A stretch of DNA of 64,000 nt, taken from a virus (lineage: Duplodnaviria > Caudoviricetes). Under the pieces are notes generated by a model. That model did no database searches and was not told the origin of the DNA. It saw only the letters and a list, made by a program, of their open reading frames with translations. Shown here piece after piece: positions 2,847-29,721 of the stretch (the stretch's first letter is position 1; each line of letters starts with the position of its first letter). The stretch is from IMG/VR virus record IMGVR_UViG_3300028048_003204, positions 3,454 to 67,453 of that record. One strand, written 5' to 3'. The translations under genes were made by a program, and so were the position numbers.

Positions 2847-4699
2847 TAAACTATCCTACTAAGTTTATCATCTCCCTTTATGATAATTATCTCATCATCT
2901 GCGGGTATTTCTAATTCGTCTGTATGGTGAGAAATAATATACACTGCTTCTACATCATTTAAGTAGTTGTTAATTAGTTCAAATACCTTACTCACACCAA
3001 CGCTATCTAAAGAATCGGTAATTTCATCAAGTACGAGAATATTAGAAGAAAAATTTAAAAATGTACAAAGCATATCTCTAATGGCAAATTGAACAATTAT
3101 ATCTAATTTTTGTTTTTCTCCACCACTTAATACACTATAATCTTTCCCATCATATGAAATATCTATATTATTATTAGCTAATTCAAATGTGAGTTTGTCT
3201 GTACCGAACACTTCACTTGAATATATTTTAGCTCTCTTTTCAATAAATGTTATTACATTATTTAATAAATATCCTCTAAAATCACGCTTTACAAGTGTTT
3301 GCATTTTAGAATTTATATTTATACGATCGTTAATTATAGCTAATTGTTCATTGTTATTATACACTTTATCAGATAGTTTTTCATTTAATATAGTCAATTC
3401 TTGTATTTTTGATTGTCTGTATTTTATATTTTCTTCTAAATTATCAATTTGATTAGTAACATTAATAAGCTTTTTATCAACATTCGATATATTACTATTA
3501 ATTTGTGATAGTTTATCACTATTAGAAGAAATATCCTCTGAAATTGTGTCTATATCAAGTCGTAAATCCGATAATTTATTTTCAAATTTAGCCTTACACT
3601 CTTTAATGTTATTAGAATTTATAAGCTGTATATCAGCAATTTCTTGTTCAAGTTGTGATATAGTATCTGATTTTTCATTTAATTCTAAATGTAGACTTGT
3701 AGTATCTATTTTTGATACATTAGGTAACTTTTGTCCACAAGTAGGGCAAATATCTACAATATTTTCTAATTCATTAATTTTATTTTTTAATGATTTTAAA
3801 TCGCTTTTTATATCAACTAGCTCTTTTTCTTTAAGAGTAGTATCTATTTGCTCTACATTATTTAAACTTGTATCATATTCTAATGATAAATCCTTTAATT
3901 CTGTCTGTTTTTCATTTAAAAGGTCATGTAAAGAAATATCAAATTCTTTATATTCATCTAATTTAAGATTTAAATCTTCAAGCTCTAATTCTAAATCATC
4001 TCTTAATTTAATTAGTGTATCTTTATTGTCAATAGAAGTTAATTCTGATTTAAATTTATTAACACTGTCATTATTAATTTTTATAGATGTTTCTAAAGAT
4101 AAATTATCATCTTGCAAAGTTCGTTGTTGCGCTGATAATTCTGATTTTCTGCTAGATAGCTTTTCTTTTAAATCCATAATCATAAAATCAGAATTAGAAA
4201 GTTTTTCAAGAACTTCTTTTCTACCAGCTGGTGTATTATTAGTAAATCTTTGGGGTAATCCTTGACCAAGTATAATTACCGAATTTAATAATGAAGAAGA
4301 AAGTTGTGGTATATACTCAACTAGTAGTTTTTCTGTATCTCTAATTCCCTTACCTGACTTATTCTCTCCATTAATATATATGAATAAGTTACTCGGGTTT
4401 TTAGTTCGTGTTATTTCATAATTTACATTATCTATATCAAAAGAGACTGACACTTCAGTTTTACCATTGGTATAAATATTAGCCACATCTTTAGCGCCAC
4501 TAACTGTTTCTCCAGTTAGACACCAAGATAAAGCAGAAAATAAACTACTCTTGCCACACCCATTTGATTTTGCATTATCATCTGGGTTATTATTGATACC
4601 ACCAACTAGAATATTACCTTGCTTATTTAAGCATACTTCCGCCTTTTCATAAGACATAAAATTAGAAAGTGATAATTTTTTAAAATAAATATTAGCCAT
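2846..4699 (-). CDS. sbcC: SbcC/Rad50/gp46-like SMC ATPase
   Basis: Walker A NGCGKSS, coiled coil with CPTCG zinc hook, signature LSGGE, Walker B LVLDE, H-loop ISH. Confidence 0.93.
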   Translation of the reverse strand: MANIYFKKLSLSNFMSYEKAEVCLNKQGNILVGGINNNPDDNAKSNGCGKSSLFSALSWCLTGETVSGAKDVANIYTNGKTEVSVSFDIDNVNYEITRTKNPSNLFIYINGENKSGKGIRDTEKLLVEYIPQLSSSLLNSVIILGQGLPQRFTNNTPAGRKEVLEKLSNSDFMIMDLKEKLSSRKSELSAQQRTLQDDNLSLETSIKINNDSVNKFKSELTSIDNKDTLIKLRDDLELELEDLNLKLDEYKEFDISLHDLLNEKQTELKDLSLEYDTSLNNVEQIDTTLKEKELVDIKSDLKSLKNKINELENIVDICPTCGQKLPNVSKIDTTSLHLELNEKSDTISQLEQEIADIQLINSNNIKECKAKFENKLSDLRLDIDTISEDISSNSDKLSQINSNISNVDKKLINVTNQIDNLEENIKYRQSKIQELTILNEKLSDKVYNNNEQLAIINDRININSKMQTLVKRDFRGYLLNNVITFIEKRAKIYSSEVFGTDKLTFELANNNIDISYDGKDYSVLSGGEKQKLDIIVQFAIRDMLCTFLNFSSNILVLDEITDSLDSVGVSKVFELINNYLNDVEAVYIISHHTDELEIPADDEIIIIKGDDKLSRIV

Positions 4700-6107: not shown

Positions 6108-6977
6108 CTATAATGCTAGTATTTTAAACACAATATAATTCTGTATAATATCGGTATTTATTTTACCTAATTTTATTTGTAAATCAAGCGAGGTTAATAA
6201 TTTATAAATATAAATTAATTCTTCTCTTGAATATTTATTACAATTATATTTTTGTATAGCCCAAAACTGTTTACCACTCATACCAAGTGTTTCTGCAGAA
6301 GCATTCCGAGCCAGTTGTATGTCTATTACCTGTTTAAAATTTTTAATTAACAATGCCATAAATGCAAAGGCATCTACTTTAATGTCTTTTTGATAAATTA
6401 ATTTTAATTTATTTTTATCTCTCTGTAAAAGTGCATTAGTTATATCAAAAATTTCATATTCATCTTTAGACAATAATTGATTTGACAATATATCAAAATA
6501 ATTATCATCAAATATTTTTAATTTATTTGATTCTATATCTAATTTATAAATATTATCATATTCATCATACAGTTTTTCAGCTTGCTCTATAGTTATAGAG
6601 CATTTAGATGATATATAATCTACTATTTGCCATTTCTCTAATTTTGGTAATTCTATTATTGATTTATCAAAATTATCCCTAATATCTTTGGATACGCTTT
6701 TACAATATATCCAACCTTTAAATGTTTTTGGTATATATTCAAGTTTGTCAGTTTTAAACACATCTAAACTAGAATTATCAATATCAAAAAACCCCATATT
6801 ATCATATAAACCATCTACTAAATTTAACTCAATAAAATTATTGTTTATAAATATATGGGCATATTGATCAAATATAAATTCTGATGATAAATCTTTTCCA
6901 ATAAATATAAATAGATTATCATCAAACAATAGTGTATTATTTTCTATTTCATTTTTAAATGTTGCTAATTCTATCAT
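6108..6977 (-). CDS. holA: Clamp loader delta-like subunit (HolA-like)
   Basis: C-terminal EIFDITNALL...ELIYIYKLLTSLDLQIKLG matches the delta collar pattern; follows delta'- and gamma-like genes. Confidence 0.65.
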   Translation of the reverse strand: MIELATFKNEIENNTLLFDDNLFIFIGKDLSSEFIFDQYAHIFINNNFIELNLVDGLYDNMGFFDIDNSSLDVFKTDKLEYIPKTFKGWIYCKSVSKDIRDNFDKSIIELPKLEKWQIVDYISSKCSITIEQAEKLYDEYDNIYKLDIESNKLKIFDDNYFDILSNQLLSKDEYEIFDITNALLQRDKNKLKLIYQKDIKVDAFAFMALLIKNFKQVIDIQLARNASAETLGMSGKQFWAIQKYNCNKYSREELIYIYKLLTSLDLQIKLGKINTDIIQNYIVFKILAL

Positions 6978-7776
6978 CTAATATTTGTTTCAATTCTAAT
7001 AGATAATTATCAATTAAATATGTTTTATTTACATTTAATACATACAAATTATTACACAAGTTTTTAGTTAGTATCATTGCCTTATAATATTTACTATCAT
7101 AACTATTAATATAATATTCATAAAGCAATTCTATAAAAATATTTATAAATAATTGTATATCAATGTCTGTTGATAATTTATTACGAATTGATAAAGCATT
7201 AGAAATATTTGCTTTATGCATATTATCAACAACATTTTTAGCTAAAGTTCTTATTTTTATTAATGTATCTTGTTCTACATTAATAATATTATAAGGTGTG
7301 TTTAATAAAGTTAATTCTTCTTTTGACCAAGATTTATTATATGCATTAGAAATATCACATAGTTCTTCTATAAAATAAGGTTGCATAGAAAATATTCTGC
7401 ATCTATTTGCTATAGTTTCTAACAAAATATTAAAATTATAAATAATAATTGTTATCCAAGCATACTCAGGTGGTTCTTCTATAAATTTCAAAAGTGTGTT
7501 TTGAAATCTTTCCAACCTCTTATTTTCACTTAAAGCATCTAAATCTATCAAATACATTTTTGGTAATGACAGATTATACATTTCATTTAATATGTCTGAG
7601 TTTAATTCATAATCAATAATTGTCTTTTCTAATTTAAACTTATCACATATATAATTATATATAGTATGTCTGCCACTACCAAAATTACCTGATATAATTA
7701 TAGATTTTGGTAATTTATCTATAGAGGTAATTTTATCTATATTTTCTATTATGTTTGTTTGTCCAATTATATTCAT
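6955..7776 (-). CDS. holB: Clamp loader delta-prime-like subunit (HolB-like)
   Basis: NIIGQ start, degenerate Walker A GNFGSGRHT, NTLLKFIEEPP, LLETIANRC (SRC-like). Confidence 0.75.
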   Translation of the reverse strand: MNIIGQTNIIENIDKITSIDKLPKSIIISGNFGSGRHTIYNYICDKFKLEKTIIDYELNSDILNEMYNLSLPKMYLIDLDALSENKRLERFQNTLLKFIEEPPEYAWITIIIYNFNILLETIANRCRIFSMQPYFIEELCDISNAYNKSWSKEELTLLNTPYNIINVEQDTLIKIRTLAKNVVDNMHKANISNALSIRNKLSTDIDIQLFINIFIELLYEYYINSYDSKYYKAMILTKNLCNNLYVLNVNKTYLIDNYLLELKQILDDRISNI

Positions 7777-8804
7777 ATAAATCTACACATTTGAGCAAAT
7801 ACAATTTCAATAGTAACTTTCTCATTATTATCTACTTTAATCATATTTTTAAGCTCTAACAACTTATCTACAAAATATAAATAATACTTATCTGGATTAT
7901 TAAACCCTATAGCTTGTTTAACATTTTCTTCTAAATGTGCTGGTAATTTTGTAACTTGAATATCACCTGATAAAATATATTTTAGTATATCAAGACAAAA
8001 CTCTGTAAACAGATCTACAAATTTTTTGAGATTAGCACCAGAATTATATAATTTTTCTATGATGAGTTGCACTTGATTTATGTTACCATCTATGATACTA
8101 TTAATCAAATTAAAATAACTATCATATGATAAATTACCCAATGCTATAAGTGTTTTTTCCATTGACATATTTTTATCATAGGAAATACAGGTTTCAAGCA
8201 TACTTATAGCTTTTCGTACCTCACCATTGCATATTCTACTAATATAATTTATAGACTCTCTCCAATTATTTATATTAATACCATTTGCACATTCAGCTTT
8301 ACAAATATAATCTAATTTTGCTTCAATTAGCTGAGAAGGTACTCTGGTAAAATTAAATCTCATACAACGATTTTGTATCGTTTCTGGGATCTTATGCGGA
8401 TCAGTTGTACAAAAAATAAATATAGTATATTTTGGAGGCTCTTCTATTGTTTTAAGAAATGCATTCCATGCCTGTGTCGACAGCATATGAGCTTCGTCTA
8501 TAATATAAACTTTATAATTACTGTGTATAGATCTTTCAGATGCTGAAGCTACAATTTGCTTTACATTATCTACACCATTGTTAGATGCTGCGTCTATTTC
8601 TATTGGTAAGCCTAAATGCTCGTTTAATTCATTTGCAAATATTCTAGCCAGTGTAGTTTTACCTGTACCACTAACACCTGAAAATATCATACAATTAAAA
8701 ATGCTATTAGTTTCTAATTGTTGTTTTAGTATTCTAACTACAGACTCTTGCCCTATGACTTCTTCAAACTTATTTGGTCTATATTTTGTATATAAAGATT
8801 CCAT
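7773..8804 (-). CDS. dnaX: DNA polymerase III gamma/tau clamp-loader ATPase
   Basis: LYTKYRPNKFEEVIGQ, GVSGTGKTT, DAASNNGVD, IIDEAHML, LKTIEEPP, TIQNRC. Confidence 0.92.
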   Translation of the reverse strand: MESLYTKYRPNKFEEVIGQESVVRILKQQLETNSIFNCMIFSGVSGTGKTTLARIFANELNEHLGLPIEIDAASNNGVDNVKQIVASASERSIHSNYKVYIIDEAHMLSTQAWNAFLKTIEEPPKYTIFIFCTTDPHKIPETIQNRCMRFNFTRVPSQLIEAKLDYICKAECANGININNWRESINYISRICNGEVRKAISMLETCISYDKNMSMEKTLIALGNLSYDSYFNLINSIIDGNINQVQLIIEKLYNSGANLKKFVDLFTEFCLDILKYILSGDIQVTKLPAHLEENVKQAIGFNNPDKYYLYFVDKLLELKNMIKVDNNEKVTIEIVFAQMCRFI

Positions 8805-8819
8805 ATAACTACTAACTAC

Positions 8820-9173
8820 CTATTGAATTTTAAAACTTTTATTTGGAAGCCACCCTTCCCAAGCTATTCTTGTACATTTACCTACAGCTTTAACTTTTGT
8901 CATTTTTCCCATAAGCTGTAATATTTCTATATCAAGTATTTCTTCGGGTGGCACTGTACCATGATTCCAATTTTCTGATAAAGAAAAATTTTCAGGTTGA
9001 TTTATTATATAATTTTCAATTTTTATAGTAAATTTATCACCAACATTTATACTACTTTTAGGTATATTATCAACACAACCAACAGTAAAGTGTGTAGTTT
9101 CTCTCCAATTAGTAGGTAATAAATGTTGTACTTTTTCTAATTCTCTTAATGTAAATTTATTAATCTGTTTCAT
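8820..9173 (-). CDS. Hypothetical protein (start likely ATG 9173)
   Basis: ORF overlapping the upstream HD gene end; SH3-like C-terminal WEGWLP. Confidence 0.6.
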   Translation of the reverse strand: MKQINKFTLRELEKVQHLLPTNWRETTHFTVGCVDNIPKSSINVGDKFTIKIENYIINQPENFSLSENWNHGTVPPEEILDIEILQLMGKMTKVKAVGKCTRIAWEGWLPNKSFKIQ

Positions 9174-9807
9174 CAGTAAAAGTAGCAATCATATCTGCTA
9201 CGTGAAGTAAATTAGCTAATGGGTATCTATGGAATATACTACTTATATTAATACCAGTAGAATCATAACCTTTACCAGCATGGTGGTTAAGAATAGCAGC
9301 AGACTCAGCTACTTTAAGTGGTATAAATTGTCTCACCATAAATTCAGCAGTCTCTTCATGATTACCATAAATAAACCTTTTATTATCTGGTATAACATTC
9401 CAAGTTTCTTCACTTACCCAATCATACCTTCCAAGTTCGTCCCATTTACTACCTGATTCTGAATATACCTTTTTATTTCTTACACCTTTTTCATAATAGT
9501 TAATTTTTGACATATCATGTAAGAGTCCACAAATAATTATACTCTCTTCAGGTATTACATCTTCAAGATGCTTATTTTCAACTAGCCTTTTAAGATTATA
9601 ATATACATTAAGTGAATGGTCTGCTAAACCCCCTATAAAACAATTATGAAATTTTGTACTTGCTGGTGCTGTAAAATAATCTGCATCTTTAAGCTTTTTT
9701 ATTAAGCCTTCAATATCAGCACCAGGTCTATCTATTTTTCTTAGCAAAGAACATATCTTATTTTCCAAAGAATTTAATTCTACAGCAGATAAATCAAGTT
9801 TCAACAT
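9160..9807 (-). CDS. HD-domain phosphohydrolase (YhaM-like HD domain)
   Basis: APASTKFH...GGLADHSLNV, GLLHDMSK, HGE-like GNHEE, ILNHH, LHVADMIA. Confidence 0.85.
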   Translation of the reverse strand: MLKLDLSAVELNSLENKICSLLRKIDRPGADIEGLIKKLKDADYFTAPASTKFHNCFIGGLADHSLNVYYNLKRLVENKHLEDVIPEESIIICGLLHDMSKINYYEKGVRNKKVYSESGSKWDELGRYDWVSEETWNVIPDNKRFIYGNHEETAEFMVRQFIPLKVAESAAILNHHAGKGYDSTGINISSIFHRYPLANLLHVADMIATFTDETD

Positions 9808-12542: not shown

Positions 12543-13010
12543 CTAATCTCCTTCATTTAAATTTTGTAATACAGAATAATCAGAATCCATAAAAACTCGT
12601 AATTTTGTTGATGGTATTTCAATTATATTATAACCTTCATCAAAAGCTTTTATACCTACTGATTTTTTACCCTCAGCCTTTAATTGCTTAATAGTAGTTG
12701 CTGGTATGTAAAATACTCTAAATTTTTCATATAAATATAATAACACACCCGCCCTTATTCCGTAAATATTAGATTTTTCTAGCAATTTGGGATATTGAGA
12801 AATCTTATCAAAAGGAATACTAGCACCTTTATGAACTTTACATTCTATATAGAACATATTAGGATATGAATAGCATATAAAGTCTGATACATTACTTATA
12901 TTAACATACCCACTAGTTACATCATAAAGTCTTAATATATCTCCTTCAGGAAAAGACTTTTTCCAACCCTCTTTAAAATGCTCTTCAAATGCTTTTCCAT
13001 TAACTGCCAT
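12543..13010 (-). CDS. recU: RecU-like Holliday junction resolvase
   Basis: NGKAFEE, SDFI, YIECKVHKGASIPFDKISQ. Confidence 0.8.
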   Translation of the reverse strand: MAVNGKAFEEHFKEGWKKSFPEGDILRLYDVTSGYVNISNVSDFICYSYPNMFYIECKVHKGASIPFDKISQYPKLLEKSNIYGIRAGVLLYLYEKFRVFYIPATTIKQLKAEGKKSVGIKAFDEGYNIIEIPSTKLRVFMDSDYSVLQNLNEGD

Positions 13011-13438
13011 TAATTAGTTCCTGTACTACCAAAACCACCTCTGCTTTTTTCATTCAAATGTTCTACTTCTTCAAAAGAAATTTCAGGTTGTTTTTCCATA
13101 ATTCTAAATTGACAAATTCTATCATTCTTTTTAATAAATGTATGTTCTACAGCATAAGCAGAAAATTTCCATTCATCTTCTTCTCCAGAATAAGAATTAT
13201 CTATTATACCCATATGGTTAGCTTGAATAACACTATATTTTTTAAATGTACTACTTCGTGGCACAATATGAGCTTCATAACCTTCGGGCAGAATCATTCC
13301 AACACCAAGTGGTATAAGTGTATGTTCACCTGCTTCAAGTTCAATATCTTTTGCAGCTCTCAAATCTATCCAATCACCTTTTGATATTTTCTCAATAGGC
13401 TCTATATCTGTAAAATATTTTATCTTAATTGTTTTCAT
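13010..13438 (-). CDS. dut: Trimeric dUTPase
   Basis: [30 protein letters not shown] motifs. Confidence 0.95.
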
Positions 13439-13622
13439 TTGAATTAGCTAGTATTTCTCCTAAAGTATCATATTCACCTATTACTTCACCACAATCATAC
13501 AAATTACCAAGAATATCCTCTTTATATAGAATATTGTCTATAATATGAAAACATTCTGTATGAGGGTTATCAGTTATATTTGTATTAATTACACCTTTAT
13601 GCGTTAGTATGTACTTCTTCAT
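13425..13622 (-). CDS. Small hypothetical protein
   Basis: 65 aa; overlaps neighbours; AAGGAG upstream. Confidence 0.55.
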
Positions 13623-14025
13623 TTATATTCATCTCCTTATCAACAATTCTTATCTTAAGGTTAGTGCTACTGAAATCATGTTGTCTTGGAAGATAAATAA
13701 CTTCTTTACCAAGAGTAGACAGCAGGTCTTTATTTTCCCAATCTTTACCCTTATGATCATCTCCCAAGAAGTACACATCATAATTAAAACTCTTTAGCAT
13801 TGTAGCAGCATCATATTTATCATAATATGGAATTACTTCATCTACCCATTTTACTGCCCTTAACTGCATATATCTTTCATATATTGTCTGTACAGGATCT
13901 TTATAATTTGGACAACAATGCAGTGCTACAATAAGATAATCACAATACTTTTTTGCTTCTTCTATAGCTATTAAATGCCCTGGGTGAAGAATATCTGCTA
14001 CCATAGGGTATATACCAATTTTCAT
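13597..14025 (-). CDS. HIGH-superfamily cytidylyltransferase (TagD / glycerol-3-phosphate cytidylyltransferase-like)
   Basis: ADILHPGH (HxGH), YERYMQLRAVKWVDEV, GDDH, LPRQHDFSST (RTxGISST-like). Confidence 0.88.
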   Translation of the reverse strand: MKIGIYPMVADILHPGHLIAIEEAKKYCDYLIVALHCCPNYKDPVQTIYERYMQLRAVKWVDEVIPYYDKYDAATMLKSFNYDVYFLGDDHKGKDWENKDLLSTLGKEVIYLPRQHDFSSTNLKIRIVDKEMNINEEVHTNA

Positions 14026-14036
14026 ATTATAACCTC

Positions 14037-14897
14037 TCAGTTTCTAAATCTATCACTAATAATTTTTGGTACACAAGTTTTCCAATTAATTGTGTGATGT
14101 AGTCGTGGGTGGCTCTCTCCCACCATAGCAATTTTTACACTATGTGGACAAGCCAATATAGAATAAAATGATTTTACATATGTACCATAAGCTTTATAAG
14201 CCTCTGTATTACCACCTTTTCTTGATTGAGTAAGTACCTGACCTAAATTAACTATAGGTGTCTGTAAAAATATTTCTCCCCTTTGACCAAGAACTGTGTA
14301 TGCATTTACATCGTCGTTAAACCTACCTAAGAAATAAAAATCATCTTCAGGCTTACCAACCTTAAAATAAAATGTATTCATAGCTTTACGCTTAGCCTGG
14401 GTTTTCCAAACATGACCATTTACACCACCAGCCATTTCGCCATTTTGTGCAAATGCAATAGTTCTTACACCAGTAGAATCAAGAAAATCAAGCATAGCTT
14501 CACAAACAGCATCAAAGTCTTCTATATTCATAGATCTTAGTACTTGACCTTCAGGTACTCTATATCTAAAATCAAGATAATCGTCTTCGAATTCTGCAAA
14601 ATAGTCAAGCTTAAGTTCTCTTGCTATATCAAAACATACATTTCTAGCATATACAACTACATTTCTGCCATCAAAATTATCATAAACATCAAACTTTTTA
14701 GCAACAGCTGCTTTATCAAATACAATAACTCTATCTTCGCCAAAAAGTTTTCTATACCCATCTACAGTATCATCTTCATTATCAATAATGAAATAATATT
14801 TACCAGTATACCCAACTTTTTGTAGAGTTTTTACAGTAAAAACCTCATCAGGTCTACCATGAGATAAAATGAATATTGCAAAATTATCCCTTACCAT
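14037..14897 (-). CDS. GT-A fold glycosyltransferase, TAGT/GREB1-like phage DNA-glycosylation family
   Basis: IFILSHGRP, YARN, FEDDY (DxD), GRFNDDVN, TQSRKGGNTE. Confidence 0.75.
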   Translation of the reverse strand: MVRDNFAIFILSHGRPDEVFTVKTLQKVGYTGKYYFIIDNEDDTVDGYRKLFGEDRVIVFDKAAVAKKFDVYDNFDGRNVVVYARNVCFDIARELKLDYFAEFEDDYLDFRYRVPEGQVLRSMNIEDFDAVCEAMLDFLDSTGVRTIAFAQNGEMAGGVNGHVWKTQAKRKAMNTFYFKVGKPEDDFYFLGRFNDDVNAYTVLGQRGEIFLQTPIVNLGQVLTQSRKGGNTEAYKAYGTYVKSFYSILACPHSVKIAMVGESHPRLHHTINWKTCVPKIISDRFRN

Positions 14898-15321
14898 TTT
14901 TAGTCTCCGAATCTTTAGCTATGGCCTCTTGTACAGAAGTCTGCTTTCTAGCTATATCCATAATTCTATTCTGCAAAGTTACATAACCATTAGCAATAGC
15001 ATCATTTAAATCTATGATAACTAATGCTGATTTTTCCATTAACGCTTGCATTTCTTTACCCTGATGAGCATAATAATCAGCTATCTTGCCATAATTAAAT
15101 ACCATATGACGAGTAGCAGCTTTAATTAAAAAGTCTTTCTGATCATCACTAATTGAAGCTGTTTTAATCTCATTTACAAGTTCATCATACTTGTGTGTTG
15201 AAATTAATTCGTGTACACTTGGACATTCAGCTTTAGGTAGATACTGTGGTATAGAAACTTTGCCCGTATATCTTGCATCTTCTTCTGTTGTTTCAATATC
15301 AAATAACCCAAATTTATCCAT
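14884..15321 (-). CDS. Conserved phage protein of unknown function, partner of the glycosyltransferase
   Basis: YTGKVSIPQY...FLIKAATRHMVFNYGKIADYYAH...ALMEKSALVIID; overlaps the GT start. Confidence 0.7.
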   Translation of the reverse strand: MDKFGLFDIETTEEDARYTGKVSIPQYLPKAECPSVHELISTHKYDELVNEIKTASISDDQKDFLIKAATRHMVFNYGKIADYYAHQGKEMQALMEKSALVIIDLNDAIANGYVTLQNRIMDIARKQTSVQEAIAKDSETKNGKG

Positions 15322-15335
15322 AATTTACTCCATTA

Positions 15336-16454
15336 TTATACAATCTCAGGAACAATATTGTAAATATTATCTTTAACACAAACAATAGCCTGATTATCTC
15401 CAAAATTAAATGTAATAAATTCTCCAGTTGAAGAATCAAGAATAGATTTTATATCTGTAAAATCAAGCACTGCTTTATATTCATCACTTATAATAGACTC
15501 ATTAGCATAAACAATTTCTTCTTTATTTACACTATTCATATCACTAATTATAACTTTATTCTTCTCAAAAGTAAATACACCATAAGTTCTATCTATAGCT
15601 GAACTTTTATCTGAGAAAATAAACAGTCTATTAATTGCCTGAAGCATTTCTACTCTATTAATAGTTACAGAATATTTATAATCTTTATATGCTCTATCTC
15701 TAATTACCTTAACTGGCACCTTTTTAATAGAAGCTTCATTTGTAGGCAATACTGCAGTTAATTCAATATCAGCAGTTTTAAACTTTGCTTTTGTCTGGAT
15801 AAGTTCTTCTGACAGTTTATCCTGACCAATAGAAAACTCTACAATATCAGATTTAAATAGCTTAAACAGTTTAACCAATTTAGAATTAAGTAATAGCTTA
15901 ACATCTTCATCAAGCTCAAACTTATTTACACACGCACCAGAAGTAAATGTAATAGCACCTTCATTATCTACATAGTATAAACTCTGTACAGGATTATTAA
16001 TAACCTTACCTATAAGCTGCTTACTATTATAGGTAAAAATACTATCTAGAATATCACCACTTATACTAAATGAATTAGTAACATTATCTATAGTTATTTC
16101 TGGAAGTTTAAGCAACTCTGTGCCATCATATACAAGCGGAAGCTTATATTTACCATTACCTGTAATTAACAAACAATTATCTGATATATCCATAGTAACT
16201 AATTCAGTAGTTATCTTTGAAATTAGTTTAAGGAAAAGCTCAGCATTTACTGTTGCGTGAAAATCTTCAGCTATATTTGTTGACAGTTTAATCTTAATGA
16301 AATACTCTCTATTGGTAACCTGTAAATACAAATTATTATTATTCAGTACAAGCTCCAATGTTTCTGTTATCTCTGACAACCCATTAGAATCTACAGCAAA
16401 GAGAATTTTAGAACAAATATTATTTAACTCTTCTGTTTTTAGTGTTATTGACAT
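15336..16454 (-). CDS. dnaN: DNA polymerase III beta sliding clamp
   Basis: 372 aa, three-domain beta-clamp pattern (LYLQVTNREYFI, FHATVNAELFLKLI, LQAINRL); co-located with clamp-loader genes. Confidence 0.85.
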   Translation of the reverse strand: MSITLKTEELNNICSKILFAVDSNGLSEITETLELVLNNNNLYLQVTNREYFIKIKLSTNIAEDFHATVNAELFLKLISKITTELVTMDISDNCLLITGNGKYKLPLVYDGTELLKLPEITIDNVTNSFSISGDILDSIFTYNSKQLIGKVINNPVQSLYYVDNEGAITFTSGACVNKFELDEDVKLLLNSKLVKLFKLFKSDIVEFSIGQDKLSEELIQTKAKFKTADIELTAVLPTNEASIKKVPVKVIRDRAYKDYKYSVTINRVEMLQAINRLFIFSDKSSAIDRTYGVFTFEKNKVIISDMNSVNKEEIVYANESIISDEYKAVLDFTDIKSILDSSTGEFITFNFGDNQAIVCVKDNIYNIVPEIV

Positions 16455-16465
16455 ATATTACCTCA

Positions 16466-17122
16466 TTAATCCATTAGTTTTACATCATTAATTTGTAAAC
16501 AAAATTTCATATCTAAATACTCTGCAGCTTTCTTACACAGCTGCATTCTACTATAAAATGTATCATAGTAATCAAGTACAGAACTATAGTTTGTATTAAG
16601 TTTTAACTTAAGTGTTATTACTCTACTATCTTTATCAGCTGTTAATATAGAAGAATCTACAGAATAATGTACTTTATCATAAATATCAAAAGTATTTAGA
16701 TCTTGTTTTCTAACTCTGCTTCTTCTTACATCAGATTTGTCTGCAATTATAAGAGCAGCTGCAATAGGGCTAACTGGAAATCCTGTAGTTACATCATGAT
16801 TACCAATAGCAGATATTATTTTTAAAATATCTTCTAATTCATAACCATTCTTTAAAAGAATATCATATGCTAATATTGCGCTTGAATGAGCATGATCATG
16901 CCTATTCACAACATTACCAATATCGTGCATATACCCAGCAATTTCAGTTAACTCTATTGTATGCTCGCTATAACCTAATTCTGATAATATATTGCAAGCC
17001 ATTTTAGCTACACGAGAAACATGGGCTAAATTATGCTCTGCAAATTCCATGGCTGCAAGACAAGAATCTGAAGCACCAATATATGGAATTAAATTTAATT
17101 TTTCTACTATATTATGTTCCAT
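16466..17122 (-). CDS. Host-like HD-domain phosphohydrolase
   Basis: EHNLAHV, YMHDIGN.VNR.DHA, AIGNHD, ALIIADKSDVRRSRV; resembles a Clostridia HD family from recall. Confidence 0.85.
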   Translation of the reverse strand: MEHNIVEKLNLIPYIGASDSCLAAMEFAEHNLAHVSRVAKMACNILSELGYSEHTIELTEIAGYMHDIGNVVNRHDHAHSSAILAYDILLKNGYELEDILKIISAIGNHDVTTGFPVSPIAAALIIADKSDVRRSRVRKQDLNTFDIYDKVHYSVDSSILTADKDSRVITLKLKLNTNYSSVLDYYDTFYSRMQLCKKAAEYLDMKFCLQINDVKLMD

Positions 17123-23939: not shown

Positions 23940-24658
23940 TTCAGCCTTATACCTCTCTTATCCATTCCTAAAAATTCTATATTTGTTGCTGTATTTATGA
24001 TTCTACTAGCCAATCTATCCCCAACAAAAGTACTAAGTTCATTAGGTACTATATTACTTGTAAATATATTAGATTTATTATCTAATAATCTTGAGTCTAT
24101 TAAACTTAATAGATGTTCGTGTTCAAACTCAGTTGCTACTTTAGTGCCAATATCGTCCCAAACAACAATATCAGCACTATTTACAAATGTATTTATATGA
24201 TCTATATAATCACTCTGAGTTGATATACTTGCTTTTAACGCTAATAAAAATTTTGGAACATTTATAAATAATACTCTACAGGTTAGTTGAGATTCTGCCC
24301 ATATTTTATTAATATAAGATTGAATTAATTTTATTGCCCAACTTGTTTTACCATTACCTGGAATTTTAGAGTATATATACAAATTATTTCCATTTTTAGT
24401 AAATGATACAATATTATCTTTTATTGTATTTAACTCTGTAAATGCCTGTAAATCAACTTTATTTACATCAAGAAGAAGAGCTTTTCTTGTTTTTTGAGCT
24501 TCAGATAATAATGCTTGATCCAATAAATAATTAATTTTATATTGTCTCATACATATCTTTATCTCACTATTCATATATGGACAAGTATCTTCTTCTGAAT
24601 TATATAATTTACAAGTATCTTTTGTAAAACAATCTACCATTAGTAACTTGTACTCCAA
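23936..24658 (-). CDS. DnaC/IstB-like helicase-loader ATPase
   Basis: GNGKT, WDDIG, IFTSN, DRLASRI. Confidence 0.85.
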   Translation of the reverse strand: MEYKLLMVDCFTKDTCKLYNSEEDTCPYMNSEIKICMRQYKINYLLDQALLSEAQKTRKALLLDVNKVDLQAFTELNTIKDNIVSFTKNGNNLYIYSKIPGNGKTSWAIKLIQSYINKIWAESQLTCRVLFINVPKFLLALKASISTQSDYIDHINTFVNSADIVVWDDIGTKVATEFEHEHLLSLIDSRLLDNKSNIFTSNIVPNELSTFVGDRLASRIINTATNIEFLGMDKRGIRLK

Positions 24659-25332
24659 TCTACATCTACAGCTTTCATATCTATTACATTATAATTTGGG
24701 TGTCTTTCTTTGTAAACTTTTACTGCCCACTTCATATCTTTCCAGCCACTAGCTGCAGCTATATTTATGATATCTAATGCTACATCTAAATTATGATTTG
24801 AAGCAGCATCAACCTCTTTTTGAGCATTAAATAAAGTTTGTTTATTTACAAAATTAATTTTTGAATATACAGAATCAAGCCAATTAGCATAAGCTTGCTG
24901 TAGTTCCATCGGCAATTTAGTATCAATATTCTTTTTCACATTTTCAAGAATATAATCACCCTTATTCTTTGAATTAGCTGCTTTTCTGAAATTCGACAAA
25001 TCTCTTCTTATCTCTTCATTTTCTTCTAACACCAGTGATGTCAAAATTTCAAGATTAATTTTTAAATGATCATTACTTAATTCTAGTATACCGAGTTTGT
25101 TTAATTCACATTCTATTTTTTCTTGTTTTGATTTAGTTAATGTAGTTCTTGCTTTTATATAATCTCTATCAACCATAAAAAAGCCATGATCTATAATCTT
25201 ATTTTTTCTAAATGCTTTTTCATTTATGTCTATTAAAGCACTAAGATATATTGCTGATTCCAATCCAAGTAGTTGAGCTAATTTAATATTAAACGATTGA
25301 TAATTAGATTGACTTAAAAGTTCTACAAGCAT
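24640..25332 (-). CDS. Replication initiator / replisome-organiser-like protein (N-terminal winged helix)
   Basis: NIKLAQLLGLESAIYL...FF.VDRDYIKARTTLT..KQ...L.KLGIL; directly upstream of loader and helicase. Confidence 0.6.
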   Translation of the reverse strand: MLVELLSQSNYQSFNIKLAQLLGLESAIYLSALIDINEKAFRKNKIIDHGFFMVDRDYIKARTTLTKSKQEKIECELNKLGILELSNDHLKINLEILTSLVLEENEEIRRDLSNFRKAANSKNKGDYILENVKKNIDTKLPMELQQAYANWLDSVYSKINFVNKQTLFNAQKEVDAASNHNLDVALDIINIAAASGWKDMKWAVKVYKERHPNYNVIDMKAVDVDWSTSY

Positions 25333-25343
25333 TAAACTTTCCC

Positions 25344-26150
25344 CTATATATCTAATATTTGTTTTATTGTATCATCATTTCTTAAAGTTATAAATGAAGT
25401 ATTAATCTTTTTATCAAATAATGCTTGATTATCACTATCAAATGTAACCAAACTATTTTTAACCTCATCAAAAACTAAATTGTATTTATATGAAAAATAT
25501 TTACAGAAATCATCATTAATATTTCTTAAATACTTTCTTAATTTTCTTAAATCAAGATTATTATGTTCATCATATACATTATTATATAGTATACCATCAA
25601 GTATAAATGCTGTTAAATAACATTTATTAATAAAATAATAATGTATCTTTTCTTCTAGTATATAATCTGATATACTATATTCTGGTTCTTCTGTTTGAGT
25701 AAAATAACCATCAACATAATCATCATATAAACTATCTAAAGAAATTATATTATTATTTATAATTCTCTTTTGTTTAAACTTTGATTCTATATAATTTTTC
25801 TTTCTGCACTGTATAGTAACAGCCATAGCCTTCATAAAAGCATTTTCATCTTTATATAAGCTACTATTAGGATTATCCCACACATGATTTTCTATCACAT
25901 ATTGAAATGTTTGTATAAATATGTCATAGCATTCTTCACAAGATAACTTTGCATTATTACCAACATAATATATTCTTTGTAAAAGATTCCAAGCATTACA
26001 AAGTAAAAAACTTGTGTATGCATTTTTATCTTCTAAAGAAGAACTAGATAAATATAGCTCTGCAATTTCATTACAACTATATTTATCTAGCTTTGTTTTA
26101 TTTATTTTATAATTATTCTCAAAAGGTTCTTTTAATTCACTTAATGTCAT
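25344..26150 (-). CDS. Sigma-70-like (region 2) transcription factor
   Basis: EECYDIFIQTFQYVIE...AFMKAMAVTIQCRKKNYI...IISLDSL. Confidence 0.6.
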   Translation of the reverse strand: MTLSELKEPFENNYKINKTKLDKYSCNEIAELYLSSSSLEDKNAYTSFLLCNAWNLLQRIYYVGNNAKLSCEECYDIFIQTFQYVIENHVWDNPNSSLYKDENAFMKAMAVTIQCRKKNYIESKFKQKRIINNNIISLDSLYDDYVDGYFTQTEEPEYSISDYILEEKIHYYFINKCYLTAFILDGILYNNVYDEHNNLDLRKLRKYLRNINDDFCKYFSYKYNLVFDEVKNSLVTFDSDNQALFDKKINTSFITLRNDDTIKQILDI

Positions 26151-26719
26151 TATTCAAACAAACTTATTATATGATCTATTGCATCTCTTGAAGCATAACT
26201 CCAAGCGTGCCCCTGGAATTTATTATTATTTTCGCAAGCTTTATATATTTTATCACAGTCTTTAATTCTTGACCCCATATATCTCATAGCTGCAGATGCA
26301 TTAATAAATATGAGATCAGAATCCATAACCACAGCTCTTGACTCATTAGGAAATCTATGATTACCAGCCACTTCAGCAGCTTTTATCCAATCTTCTTTTG
26401 TAACCTCTTTATCATATTCATTAATATCATAGCTTGGTACATAGACTATTGATTCTGCTTTTCTTTTCAATTCAGCTTTGCGCTTTTCTTCAGATTCAAC
26501 TTTCAACTTTTCTACAAATGGAATTATATCTTCATCATCTGTAGTGAAAAAACCATTCTCTTCAAATGCTTTTATAGAAAATTTTGAAAAAGCACCATTA
26601 TTGAACTGAACTGAAACTTTAGATTTAAGCTGATCTTCTGGGTTAATTTCAAGATCTGTAATTACGCCAGTTCCAAATTTAACTGTATTTTTGTGATTTA
26701 CATTAGCTCCGATAAACAT
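26150..26719 (-). CDS. Tudor-like (UvrD/PcrA C-terminal type) + NUMOD1-like HTH protein
   Basis: VNHKNTVKFGTGVITDLE...VSVQF; C-terminal IFINASAAMRYMG...IYKAC...FQGHAWSY. Confidence 0.55.
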   Translation of the reverse strand: MFIGANVNHKNTVKFGTGVITDLEINPEDQLKSKVSVQFNNGAFSKFSIKAFEENGFFTTDDEDIIPFVEKLKVESEEKRKAELKRKAESIVYVPSYDINEYDKEVTKEDWIKAAEVAGNHRFPNESRAVVMDSDLIFINASAAMRYMGSRIKDCDKIYKACENNNKFQGHAWSYASRDAIDHIISLFE

Positions 26720-28041: not shown

Positions 28042-29721
28042 TTATTTACCTAAATCTAAAATATATTTTTTAAGACTTTCCAATGAATTCTGTGATATTT
28101 TATTATCAATAATAAAATCAGATATAGCCTCTTTTGTTTTTACAATTTCGTGTACTCTTTCATCAATGGTATCTTTTGTAATTAACTCATAGATAAATAC
28201 AGCTTTATTAGCACCAATTCTATGTATTCTATCCTGAGCTTGTTCAACTTCAGCAGCTGTCCAAGGTACATCTAGAAATATAGCATACGACGCAGCTGTT
28301 AATGTAAAACCTGTACCTGCCTTCTGTGAAGTCGCCAACATTACTTTACAATTTATATCATCTTGAAATTTTTTCTTATTAATTTCAACTTCTTGATCGG
28401 ATACATCGCCTGTAACTAATACAGGATTAAACTTCATTAGCTTTGTATATAATTGATTTAATGGGTCTTTGAATACAGAAAAAACAATTACCTTATCCCC
28501 ATTATCTGTAATTTCTTCTATTAAATCTATAGCTCGATCAACCTTTGCACTTGGTATTTCTTCTGAAGATAATACCCAAGGAGATACAGTGGCTTGTCTT
28601 AATCTAGTTGTTAATGATAATATGTTAGCAGGATTTAAATGCACTTTATCAACTTGATCAACAATGCCATCTACAATATTGCTATAAAATGTTGACTGTT
28701 TATCCTTCATAGTAACATATTCCTGTATTACAGTTTTTGGTGGTAAATCTAGTAAATCTTTCGTCCTTCTCAATGAATATTTAGATAATTGATCTTTTAA
28801 AACATCAGTATTTTTATAACCAATTATTTCATTATCAAAATAGCCACCAAATACACAATAATAATATTTAAAATTAGTAGCAGTACTATTTTCAATACCT
28901 AGCCATTTCAATGGTACATATGCGTCAAGTGGATTATTGGTTAATAAAGTTCCAGTCATAGCAACTTTATATTTTGCAGTTAATTTCTGTAAACCTTTAC
29001 TCTGTTGAGCCGATACAGATTTTGCTTTATGACATTCATCGAATAATATCATATCAAAATTTGTTTTACCATTATTAATTTCTTTAACTATTTTATCATC
29101 TCTTAAAGTTTCAATATTTGTAATGGTAAAGAATTCTTCTCTTTCTACTTTTAAATCATCTAATCTTTCCTTTATACCACCAACTTTAAGTTTACCTTTT
29201 TTATTAAGCTTTTCTCCAAGTATATGTACAGAAAGGTGTGAATGTTTTTCAATTTCAGCTTTCCAGTTGTGTTTTAAAGCATTTACTCCACATACAACTA
29301 AACAATGATTTATTTCCCCTCTTTCTTTTAATTCCTGAGCAAGATAAATCATTTGTAAAGTTTTACCTAATCCTGGAGCGTCTAGCAATAACCAGTTAAA
29401 ATTTGTCAATCCGAACTTTATTCCCTCTAATTGATATGGAAAAGGTTTTGTAAGATAACTATCTTCATTTAATTTTACTTCAATATGTTCTTTTATTTCT
29501 TCTTCTAAAAGGGTTATATCTATTGAATCTAAATTTGATAACAAAGTAATAGCTCTAGATAAACTTGTTGCAGGTATTTCCCAACTTTGTAACTTTTTAT
29601 GATAAATAGCATTTGGTACCTGTTTTATAGTATCTACTACTCTTTTATCATAATTAAATGATACTTTAAAAGAAGTTTCTCCAGGTAATTTATATGGTAT
29701 TTGTTCTTGTAGATATATCAT
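28042..29721 (-). CDS. SNF2-family helicase/translocase with HARP-like N-terminus
   Basis: PFPYQLEG, DAPGLGKT, FDECH, MTGT, LRRTK, GTGFTLTAAS, QAQDRIHRIG. Confidence 0.92.
   Translation of the reverse strand: MIYLQEQIPYKLPGETSFKVSFNYDKRVVDTIKQVPNAIYHKKLQSWEIPATSLSRAITLLSNLDSIDITLLEEEIKEHIEVKLNEDSYLTKPFPYQLEGIKFGLTNFNWLLLDAPGLGKTLQMIYLAQELKERGEINHCLVVCGVNALKHNWKAEIEKHSHLSVHILGEKLNKKGKLKVGGIKERLDDLKVEREEFFTITNIETLRDDKIVKEINNGKTNFDMILFDECHKAKSVSAQQSKGLQKLTAKYKVAMTGTLLTNNPLDAYVPLKWLGIENSTATNFKYYYCVFGGYFDNEIIGYKNTDVLKDQLSKYSLRRTKDLLDLPPKTVIQEYVTMKDKQSTFYSNIVDGIVDQVDKVHLNPANILSLTTRLRQATVSPWVLSSEEIPSAKVDRAIDLIEEITDNGDKVIVFSVFKDPLNQLYTKLMKFNPVLVTGDVSDQEVEINKKKFQDDINCKVMLATSQKAGTGFTLTAASYAIFLDVPWTAAEVEQAQDRIHRIGANKAVFIYELITKDTIDERVHEIVKTKEAISDFIIDNKISQNSLESLKKYILDLGK

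Follow-up and report, generated by a model that had tools for sequence, protein, structure and literature searches.

The subject of this study is a cassette of three tightly packed genes in a 64,000-nucleotide stretch of viral DNA (Duplodnaviria; Caudoviricetes), which spans positions 3,454 to 67,453 of the IMG/VR record IMGVR_UViG_3300028048_003204 and is hereafter called the window. In the order of transcription, the genes encode a small partner protein, a glycosyltransferase (GT) of the TAGT family, and a nucleotidyltransferase with a cytidylyltransferase fold (CT). The open reading frame (ORF) listing and the family scans indicated that the cassette is flanked by the genes for dUTPase and the beta sliding clamp. 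The GT start overlaps the partner stop by 14 nt, a gap of 11 nt separates the GT and CT genes, and the CT gene overlaps a 65-aa ORF by 26 nt. The coordinates, the flanking genes, and the tight packing agreed with an earlier, preliminary description of this DNA, and all the motifs quoted there (HxGH in CT; ILSHGRP, FEDDY, and GRFNDDVN in the GT; RHMVFNYGKIADYYAH in the partner) were present.

The GT scored 99.1 bits against the TAGT profile PF20691 (gathering score, 27.5; E 4e-28), with 202 of the 205 profile positions covered, and matched phrog_842 with an E value of 3e-56. This hidden Markov model search bore out the TAGT assignment made in the preliminary description. Comparison of its AlphaFold2 (AF2) model (pLDDT 84.4, pTM 0.86) with viral TAGT models in BFVD gave template modeling (TM) scores of 0.83-0.86, and that with the T-even beta-glucosyl-HMC-alpha-GT (HMC, hydroxymethylcytosine) gave 0.63. 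Residues R15, D42, and D105-D106 were invariant or nearly so (alignment A2). These conserved residues, together with the FEDDY motif, agreed with the R...DDD...EDY/F active-site signature, which is common to JGT and was defined in bioRxiv 10.1101/2023.12.21.572611. Its sequence, fold, and motifs all identify the GT as a true member of the TAGT family. Its Pfam family, GT-A fold, and active-site residues are those of the TAGT enzymes that glycosylate DNA, namely the T2/T6 enzyme, the GT-A enzymes associated with 5mYOX or ThyS, and the kinetoplastid JGT; it is likewise phage-encoded among genes of DNA metabolism, with multi-GT arrays in the relatives of the window.

The single family match of the partner was phrog_620, which is labeled 'ParB-like partition protein' and was matched at its C-terminal positions 138-215 of 217. 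The partner was 45-56% identical to the C-terminal halves of YnaK-type proteins that stand beside TAGT GTs and contain a ParB_N domain, which is located at the N-terminus of these fused homologues. No match to PF02195 (ParB_N) was found in the partner or anywhere in the record. These comparisons identify the partner as the C-terminal domain (~120 aa) of YnaK-type ParB-like proteins in standalone form; owing to the absence of ParB_N, it is not itself a ParB. The preliminary description had called it a conserved helical protein; it is both helical and conserved, and can be defined more specifically as the C-terminal domain of the ParB-like proteins with which this GT subfamily is always associated. 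Furthermore, a tblastn search of GenBank phages detected GT homologues at 37-45% identity, each directly preceded by a 'ParB-like' gene. The carriers of this pair were siphophages of E. coli/Salmonella, the Lactobacillus phages phi jlb1, c5, phiLdb, and PMBT4, Nocardia phage NTR1, 191-kb Vibrio phages, and the haloarchaeal virus HHTV-2. By megablast, no close relative of the region was found among GenBank phages.

Three parts can be distinguished in the partner: an LF-type peptide (MDKFGLF) at the N-terminus, the conserved segment KYT..K..IPQY.P, and a core of four helices. In the AF2 model, the core (residues 30-100) had a pLDDT of 83-97 and was accompanied by a long C-terminal helix and a low-confidence N-terminal segment. 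Y18, T19, and Y27 were found in at least 90% of the alignment rows, and P25 was invariant. Sequence and profile searches of the PDB with the partner gave no match; a Foldseek search of the PDB with its fold returned nothing at E ≤ 0.001, and the best Z score obtained with VIA-align against 48,161 chains was 4.1, which is the noise level for helical models. A match to the Pfam family DUF4476 was below the cut-off and was dropped, and a literature search on the function of ynaK/ydaY gave nothing relevant. When the partner profile was compared with the TET-linked ParB of Mycobacterium phage Cooper, the similarity was confined to ParB_N, with none in the C-terminal half; therefore, the partner domain looks GT-specific at the level of these profiles.

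A pattern search with the partner alignment found the partner domain in more than 573 IMG/VR loci. We scored a sample of 90 non-redundant partner loci, comprising 86 IMG/VR viral contigs and four GenBank phage records. A TAGT GT was encoded within 120 nt of the partner in 85 of them and within 2.4 kb in three, and two loci end at a contig edge. CT was present in nine loci, directly after a GT and all within one lytic clade. Because the partner and the GT are adjacent in 85 loci and CT occurs in nine, the obligate unit is the partner and the GT, and CT is a lineage-specific accessory. The Vibrio phage phiKT1024/Va1 has a standalone partner and a GT, and its CT is encoded at another place in the genome. 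The preliminary description had treated the trio as the unit; the order partner-GT-CT is indeed conserved in relatives, but only its first two members are obligate. The partner was fused to ParB_N in 41 loci and standalone in 49, and 19 loci carried at least two full-length GTs. In the form found in temperate phages, the partner is fused to ParB_N and the pair lies just before the terminase genes.

The pair of ynaK, carried by Rac-type prophages, and a TAGT gene was found in 1580 of 5426 complete E. coli genomes (~29%). In the E. coli Rac pair, the partner domain and the GT are each 45% identical to those of the window, and the genes overlap in the same order. The Rac pair differs in that YnaK has an N-terminal ParB_N, that it is located between lysis and terminase genes of a temperate phage, and that no cytidylyltransferase accompanies it. 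No description of an obligate ParB-domain/TAGT pair was found in the searchable literature, and a survey of the ParB fold (PMC12704722) makes no mention of one. In its obligate pairing with a partner domain, the window GT differs from the characterized TAGT DNA GTs, for which no need of such a partner has been reported.

Relatives of the GT were found in twelve IMG/VR loci, and all eight that bear CT showed the order partner-GT-CT. The gene order was kept even where PolA identity was only ~36-50%, and the cassette was always located in the replication module. There were five GT paralogues in one locus (L004) and two in each of four others (L005, L007, L008, and L013). The former, on a 115-kb contig (L004:5431-10855), has the partner, four GT paralogues, CT, a small ORF, and a fifth GT, an array that looks like one for multi-sugar glycan building. 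A 352-kb jumbo phage contig (L012:9989-13094) carries a tandem GT-partner-GT-partner arrangement; the N-terminal LF peptide is missing from both of its partners. For every locus with a CT, a quick maximum-likelihood tree placed the GT next to the partner in one 15-row group with the jumbo-phage GTs (SH-aLRT 94), and the extra GT paralogues formed deep separate clades. This grouping of the CT-linked GTs fits a single recruitment of CT in this GT lineage.

The surroundings of the cassette are those of a replication operon (Table 1). Beyond the clamp gene lie genes for an HD hydrolase, PolA, SSB, primase, DnaB, and DnaC, and the other flank of the cassette carries RusA-like and RecA-like genes; a single strand is coding throughout the window. 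Two HD-domain phosphohydrolases are encoded in the operon (9160-9807 and 16466-17122), one of them between polA and the clamp gene, and these enzymes might shape the nucleotide pools. A bacterial-type clamp loader (DnaX-, HolB-, and HolA-like; 6108-8804) and the beta clamp occur alongside a family-A polymerase. Homologues of the 65-aa ORF were found after CT in three related loci (L002, L003, and L004) at 38-53% identity; the ORF had no Pfam or PHROG match, and its membership of the cassette is uncertain. The record as a whole is a 67.4-kb IMG/VR fragment estimated to be ~44% complete, and the 3.4 kb of it outside the window contained phage-type genes only and neither a host flank nor a modification enzyme. 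It is labeled 'provirus' in IMG/VR, yet a host flank is not visible. At the end of the record there is a peptide-deformylase-like ORF with a HEIDHL motif (G000:C1:1-525, L098).

Table 1 Features of the cassette, its surroundings, and the fused CT genes of related loci. Coordinates are those of the window unless a related locus is named.
Feature	Coordinates	Strand	Basis or remark
Partner/adaptor gene, 145 aa	14884-15321	minus	ORF listing; phrog_620 C-terminal match
TAGT-family GT-A glycosyltransferase (GT), 286 aa	14037-14897	minus	PF20691, phrog_842
Cytidylyltransferase-fold nucleotidyltransferase (CT), 142 aa	13597-14025	minus	PF01467, HxGH
Small acidic ORF, 65 aa	13425-13622	minus	overlaps CT stop; kept after CT in closest relatives
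dUTPase	13010-13438		PF00692, E 1e-16
Phage beta sliding clamp, directly upstream of partner gene	15336-16454	minus	PF00712, phrog_947
Second TAGT-family GT, very divergent, 350 aa	26989-28041	minus	PF20691, phrog_842
SNF2-family DNA translocase	28042-29721	minus	PF00176, E 1e-30; Helicase_C, E 9e-15
CT-HAD fusion	L008:10870-11610		
CT-HAD fusion	L007:11030-11758		
CT-HAD fusion	L006:10849-11571		
CT-HAD fusion	L013:10864-11604		
CT-HAD fusion	L029:7377-8123		

Subsequently, the nature of the CT was considered. It scored 52.8 bits against PF01467 (cut-off, 21; E 6e-14) and 54.7 bits against TIGR00125 (cut-off, 27.7). With the more specific models the scores stayed below the cut-offs and were nearly tied, being 61.7 bits versus 165.4 for the TagD equivalog TIGR01518 and 54.2 bits versus 181.5 for TIGR02199, the equivalog-domain model of RfaE domain II/HldC. 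In addition, phrog_7878, which is labeled as RfaE domain II/HldC type, matched the CT at E 1.5e-25. The nearest solved structures were ECT (3elb), TagD (1coz), and CCT (E 3e-13 to 4e-13). The CT shares the PF01467 fold and an intact HxGH motif (HPGH) with TagD and GCT/ECT/CCT, whereas the position of the RTEGISTT motif reads RQHDFSST, in which R, S, S, and T are kept and TEG is lost. H14, G16, H17, R115, S120, and S121 were invariant among relatives. On its sequence, the CT is to be regarded as a member of the cytidylyltransferase-like superfamily only. The preliminary description had found it most like TagD; by the TIGR01518 score, the likeness is only marginal.

In five related loci, the CT is extended to ~245 aa by an additional domain, a small phosphatase of the HAD type. 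This domain carries the motifs VDFDGCIC...ILWTCR...EYWDD, and its profile matched PDB 2obb (E 5e-19), phrog_1238 (labeled as phosphoheptose isomerase), and, weakly, HAD and PNK-phosphatase families. A phosphatase and a nucleotidyltransferase perform the last two steps of nucleotide-heptose synthesis, and the fusion is a hint, although only a suggestive one, of an RfaE/HldC-like role. DxD GT-A enzymes catalyze glycosyl transfer from nucleoside diphosphate (NDP)-sugars, and the transfer of alcohol-phosphate from cytidine diphosphate (CDP)-alcohols is the work of TagF-, LicD-, and Stealth-type enzymes. Since alcohol-phosphate transfer is not expected of a DxD GT-A enzyme, CDP-glycerol is disfavored as the donor; the failure to reach the TagD cut-off and the CT-HAD fusion in sister phages favor a route from a sugar phosphate to an NDP-sugar instead. 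The CT is predicted to be a donor-making enzyme, for which a sugar-1-phosphate (heptose-like) is a more likely substrate than glycerol-3-phosphate. The CDP-glycerol or polyol-phosphate donor envisaged in the preliminary description thus finds no support in the widely missed TagD cut-off, the HAD fusion, and the enzymology of GT-A proteins.

The more general idea that a phage cytidylyltransferase feeds a DNA GT does have a precedent, the heptosyl-5-hydroxymethylcytosine (heptosyl-5hmC) cluster 'contig 53'. Reconstitution of this phage cluster showed that the formation of heptosyl-5hmC requires three components, namely a DNA GT, a cytidylyltransferase, and a HAD/APH enzyme (bioRxiv 10.1101/2023.12.21.572611). 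As is predicted for the window, a cytidylyltransferase-fold enzyme stands beside a DNA GT and feeds it with an unusual activated sugar, and the combination of HAD/APH, cytidylyltransferase, and GT-B in contig 53 resembles the fusion of CT to a HAD phosphatase in the sister lineages. However, the GT-B of contig 53 acts on 5hmC formed by a clustered C5-MT and 5mYOX, whereas the window GT is of the GT-A type and is accompanied by neither a kinase nor an acceptor maker. The concept is also older than the word 'novel' in the preliminary description implied, as 'CTP transferase' genes were drawn in TET/GT contigs in 2021 by Burke et al. (PMC8256090).

A second TAGT-family GT is encoded elsewhere in the window. 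It scored 33 bits against PF20691 (gathering score as above) and matched phrog_842 at E 3e-9, and BLASTP detected no similarity between it and the first GT. Its gene starts one base after the stop of the SNF2 helicase gene, i.e., the two are translationally coupled, and no partner domain adjoins it. None of the related loci contained a homologue of it within ±10 kb around the GT. This coupling is reminiscent of JBP2, which is the SNF2-dioxygenase fusion of base-J synthesis. Three ORFs (24640-25332, 25344-26150, and 26150-26719) were considered as hidden dioxygenases and were rejected, having no Pfam, PHROG, or NCBIfam support; no HxD...H pattern was seen in them by eye, a motif search not having been run. 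The ESM Atlas neighbors of the 268-aa ORF among these were viral hypothetical proteins near sigma-70-like clusters, and a faint Stealth_CR2 match (21 bits; cut-off, 39) was dropped.

With moderate confidence, we favor post-replicative glycosylation of DNA by an adaptor-tethered GT, a system extended in this lineage by the CT as a donor maker. We infer DNA as the target because the characterized TAGT and GT-A enzymes act on DNA, ParB-like proteins are known as activators of a DNA-modifying enzyme, the genes stand in a replisome operon, and an SNF2 gene is coupled to that of the second TAGT. Among these enzymes, the T2/T6 beta-glucosyl-HMC-alpha-GT is a TAGT-family enzyme acting on DNA (PMC13390438), and phage GT-A enzymes act on 5hmC (bioRxiv 10.1101/2023.12.21.572611). 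Experiments have shown that ParB-like proteins activate a phage DNA dioxygenase on dsDNA and that this activation is specific to the cognate pair (PMC13229309), and according to a proposal by Aravind and co-workers, as cited in PMC8256090, modification machinery is guided to DNA by ParB. The ParB-dependent thymine dioxygenase system 5mYOX176/ParB176 (O'Toole et al., PNAS 2026, PMC13229309) resembles that of the window in that a DNA-modifying enzyme is combined with an adjoining ParB-derived helper. Such 5mYOX/ParB pairs occur in temperate phages before the terminase genes, as do the temperate ParB-GT pairs; in Cooper (L096:1-2387), the layout is ParB-like gp1, TET gp2, and terS, which parallels the order ParB-partner, GT, and terS. 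On the other hand, the enzyme in the window is a glycosyltransferase, and its helper lacks the ParB nucleotide-binding domain.

In the proposed mechanism, the partner, as an enzyme-specific C-terminal domain of the YnaK type, would bind the GT and keep it on DNA. The tether in temperate phages would be the fused ParB_N domain, which has a CTP-clamp fold. In the lytic clade, where ParB_N is gone and an LF-type N-terminal peptide and a neighboring beta clamp gene are found, the partner may possibly ride the replicative clamp. The GT would then move a sugar from an NDP-sugar either to newly synthesized phage DNA or to a sugar that this DNA already carries, and the CT would provide or replenish the activated donor, using a phosphorylated precursor of host origin. 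The probable benefit would be that the phage DNA is shielded from restriction and CRISPR nucleases.

The role of the clamp was considered from the N-terminal peptide and the gene neighborhood. An N-terminal [LMIF]F peptide was present in 40 of 44 standalone partners, in 14 of them as Qxx[LMIF]F; MDKFGLF of the window lacks the Q. Twenty-six of 47 standalone partners, but none of 40 ParB_N-fused partners, had a clamp gene within 6 kb (Fisher p 1.4e-9), a difference for which phylogeny is a confounder. The peptide and the clamp proximity fit a scenario in which the replicative clamp has taken over from ParB_N as the platform on DNA, and the beta clamp is a weak candidate for the docking platform of the partner.

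Several points weigh against DNA as the target or against parts of this mechanism, of which the phylogenetic confounder just mentioned is one. A related FGF peptide was also found in 12 of the 40 fused partners, and the N-terminal peptide could equally contact the GT rather than the clamp. Structure and profile searches with the partner core did not find a match to a DNA-binding fold. The CT was absent from 81 of the 90 loci and is not needed for the core reaction. The GT also lacks the usual genomic hallmark of the TAGT family, an associated enzyme that makes a hydroxylated pyrimidine. We searched for four acceptor-enzyme families, PF00303 (ThyA-like), PF02511 (ThyX), PF00145 (C5-MTase), and PF12851 (TET/JBP). 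All four were absent from this record, which by itself says little given its completeness, and they were equally absent from cassette-bearing relatives that are 70-100% complete, including four at 91-100%. TET/JBP was found in none of 60 other partner-GT genomes and contigs, at least 26 of which are at least 90% complete; this set comprises, among others, five genomes that include the complete phi jlb1 and phiKT1024. The preliminary description had seen no TET, hydroxymethylase, or kinase in the window, and the absence of acceptor enzymes extends to near-complete relatives. In lacking ThyA-type, TET/JBP, and C5-methylase genes, the cassette and its complete relatives differ from the known systems with TAGT DNA GTs, and to our knowledge no chemistry has been described for GT-A glycosylation of canonical DNA. 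GT contigs without 5mYOX or ThyS, which make up ~65% of the GT contigs, were considered less obviously DNA-related by the authors of bioRxiv 10.1101/2023.12.21.572611, where ParB was merely listed among the neighbors.

A bolder version of adaptor-tethered glycosylation can also be considered: the sugar would be put on DNA without a pre-made hydroxy(methyl) pyrimidine, i.e., on a canonical base, the backbone, or an acceptor provided by an unrecognized activity, with loading through interchangeable sliding platforms (the fused ParB CTP clamp in temperate phages, the beta clamp in the lytic clade) and a non-standard donor supplied by the CT in this clade. We put this version forward tentatively and consider it doubtful as a whole.

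The main alternative is that the GT glycosylates a protein, which may be the partner itself at its invariant, Tyr/Thr-rich KYT..K..IPQY.P segment, the clamp, or another replication or packaging protein, the partner being the substrate or a substrate-presenting subunit. An acceptor-base enzyme was found in no partner-GT genome searched, as would be expected in that case, and GREB1, a TAGT relative, has been reported to O-GlcNAcylate estrogen receptor alpha (PMC7968844), a further point that counts against DNA. The positions Y18, T19, Y27, and P25 lie in the low-confidence segment of the AF2 model, as expected of a peptide that docks onto another protein, and the pairing is strictly one-to-one, even where it is duplicated as GT-partner-GT-partner in the jumbo phage. 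However, the characterized phage TAGT and GT-A enzymes work on DNA, the fused ParB_N belongs to the fold of a DNA clamp, and activation of a DNA dioxygenase by ParB-like proteins is known. Moreover, the arrays of two to five GT paralogues, as in L004, resemble glycan building as reported for DNA glycans, and a DNA translocase gene is coupled to that of the second TAGT. A protein target appears unlikely.

A conventional hypermodification, in which 5hmC, 5-hydroxymethyluracil, or 5-hydroxycytosine is made by an enzyme missed because it lies in the unsequenced ~56% of the genome or is too divergent for Pfam, is improbable. The record is indeed only ~44% complete, thousands of 5mYOX-like contigs lack a PF12851 annotation (O'Toole et al.), and the dUTPase and two HD hydrolases of the operon could shape nucleotide pools. 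Yet all four families were missing from the near-complete cassette-bearing relatives (149 kb, the genome of L005; 73 kb with terminal repeats, that of L007; 65 kb; 73 kb), the completeness values of which are 99%, 100%, 91%, and 100%, and TET/JBP was found in none of the 50 contigs that belong to the partner-GT set counted above, 25 of which are at least 90% complete. As a positive control, the same search pipeline detected the weak TET/JBP domain of Cooper gp2 (E 4e-8, 28 bits), a protein that is annotated as 'queuine tRNA-ribosyltransferase' despite this domain. Furthermore, temperate phages of 31-38 kb have only the ParB-partner and the GT.

Envelope remodeling, in which the CT would make CDP-glycerol or another CDP-alcohol and the GT would modify teichoic acid or a surface glycopolymer like the prophage enzyme TarP, blocking superinfection or altering the host surface, is very improbable: ECT, TagD, and CCT are the nearest solved relatives of the CT, and TarP and TarS were among the PDB structural matches of the GT, but the TarP match is a generic GT-A similarity (TMq 0.43-0.46 versus 0.83-0.86 for TAGT models), Pfam assigns the GT to TAGT and not to GT2, the CT is far under the TagD cut-off and absent from most loci, the carriers span viruses of Gram-negative, Gram-positive, actinobacterial, and archaeal hosts, and the obligate ParB-derived partner and the position in the replication operon would be left unexplained.

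DNA glycosylation guards phages from restriction enzymes and CRISPR nucleases, and it makes phage genomes harder to sequence and to engineer. Among the uncharacterized candidate modules for DNA modification, the partner-GT pair is one of the commonest. If the DNA is modified by it, the pair would represent a new acceptor chemistry; otherwise, it would represent TAGT enzymes with non-DNA targets. The window holds the lytic, replication-embedded form of this module: the ParB domain has been lost, the clamp gene adjoins, the pair has gained a putative donor enzyme, and another TAGT gene is coupled to that of an SNF2 protein. The lytic and temperate forms thereby offer a natural comparison of how such an enzyme may be delivered to DNA.

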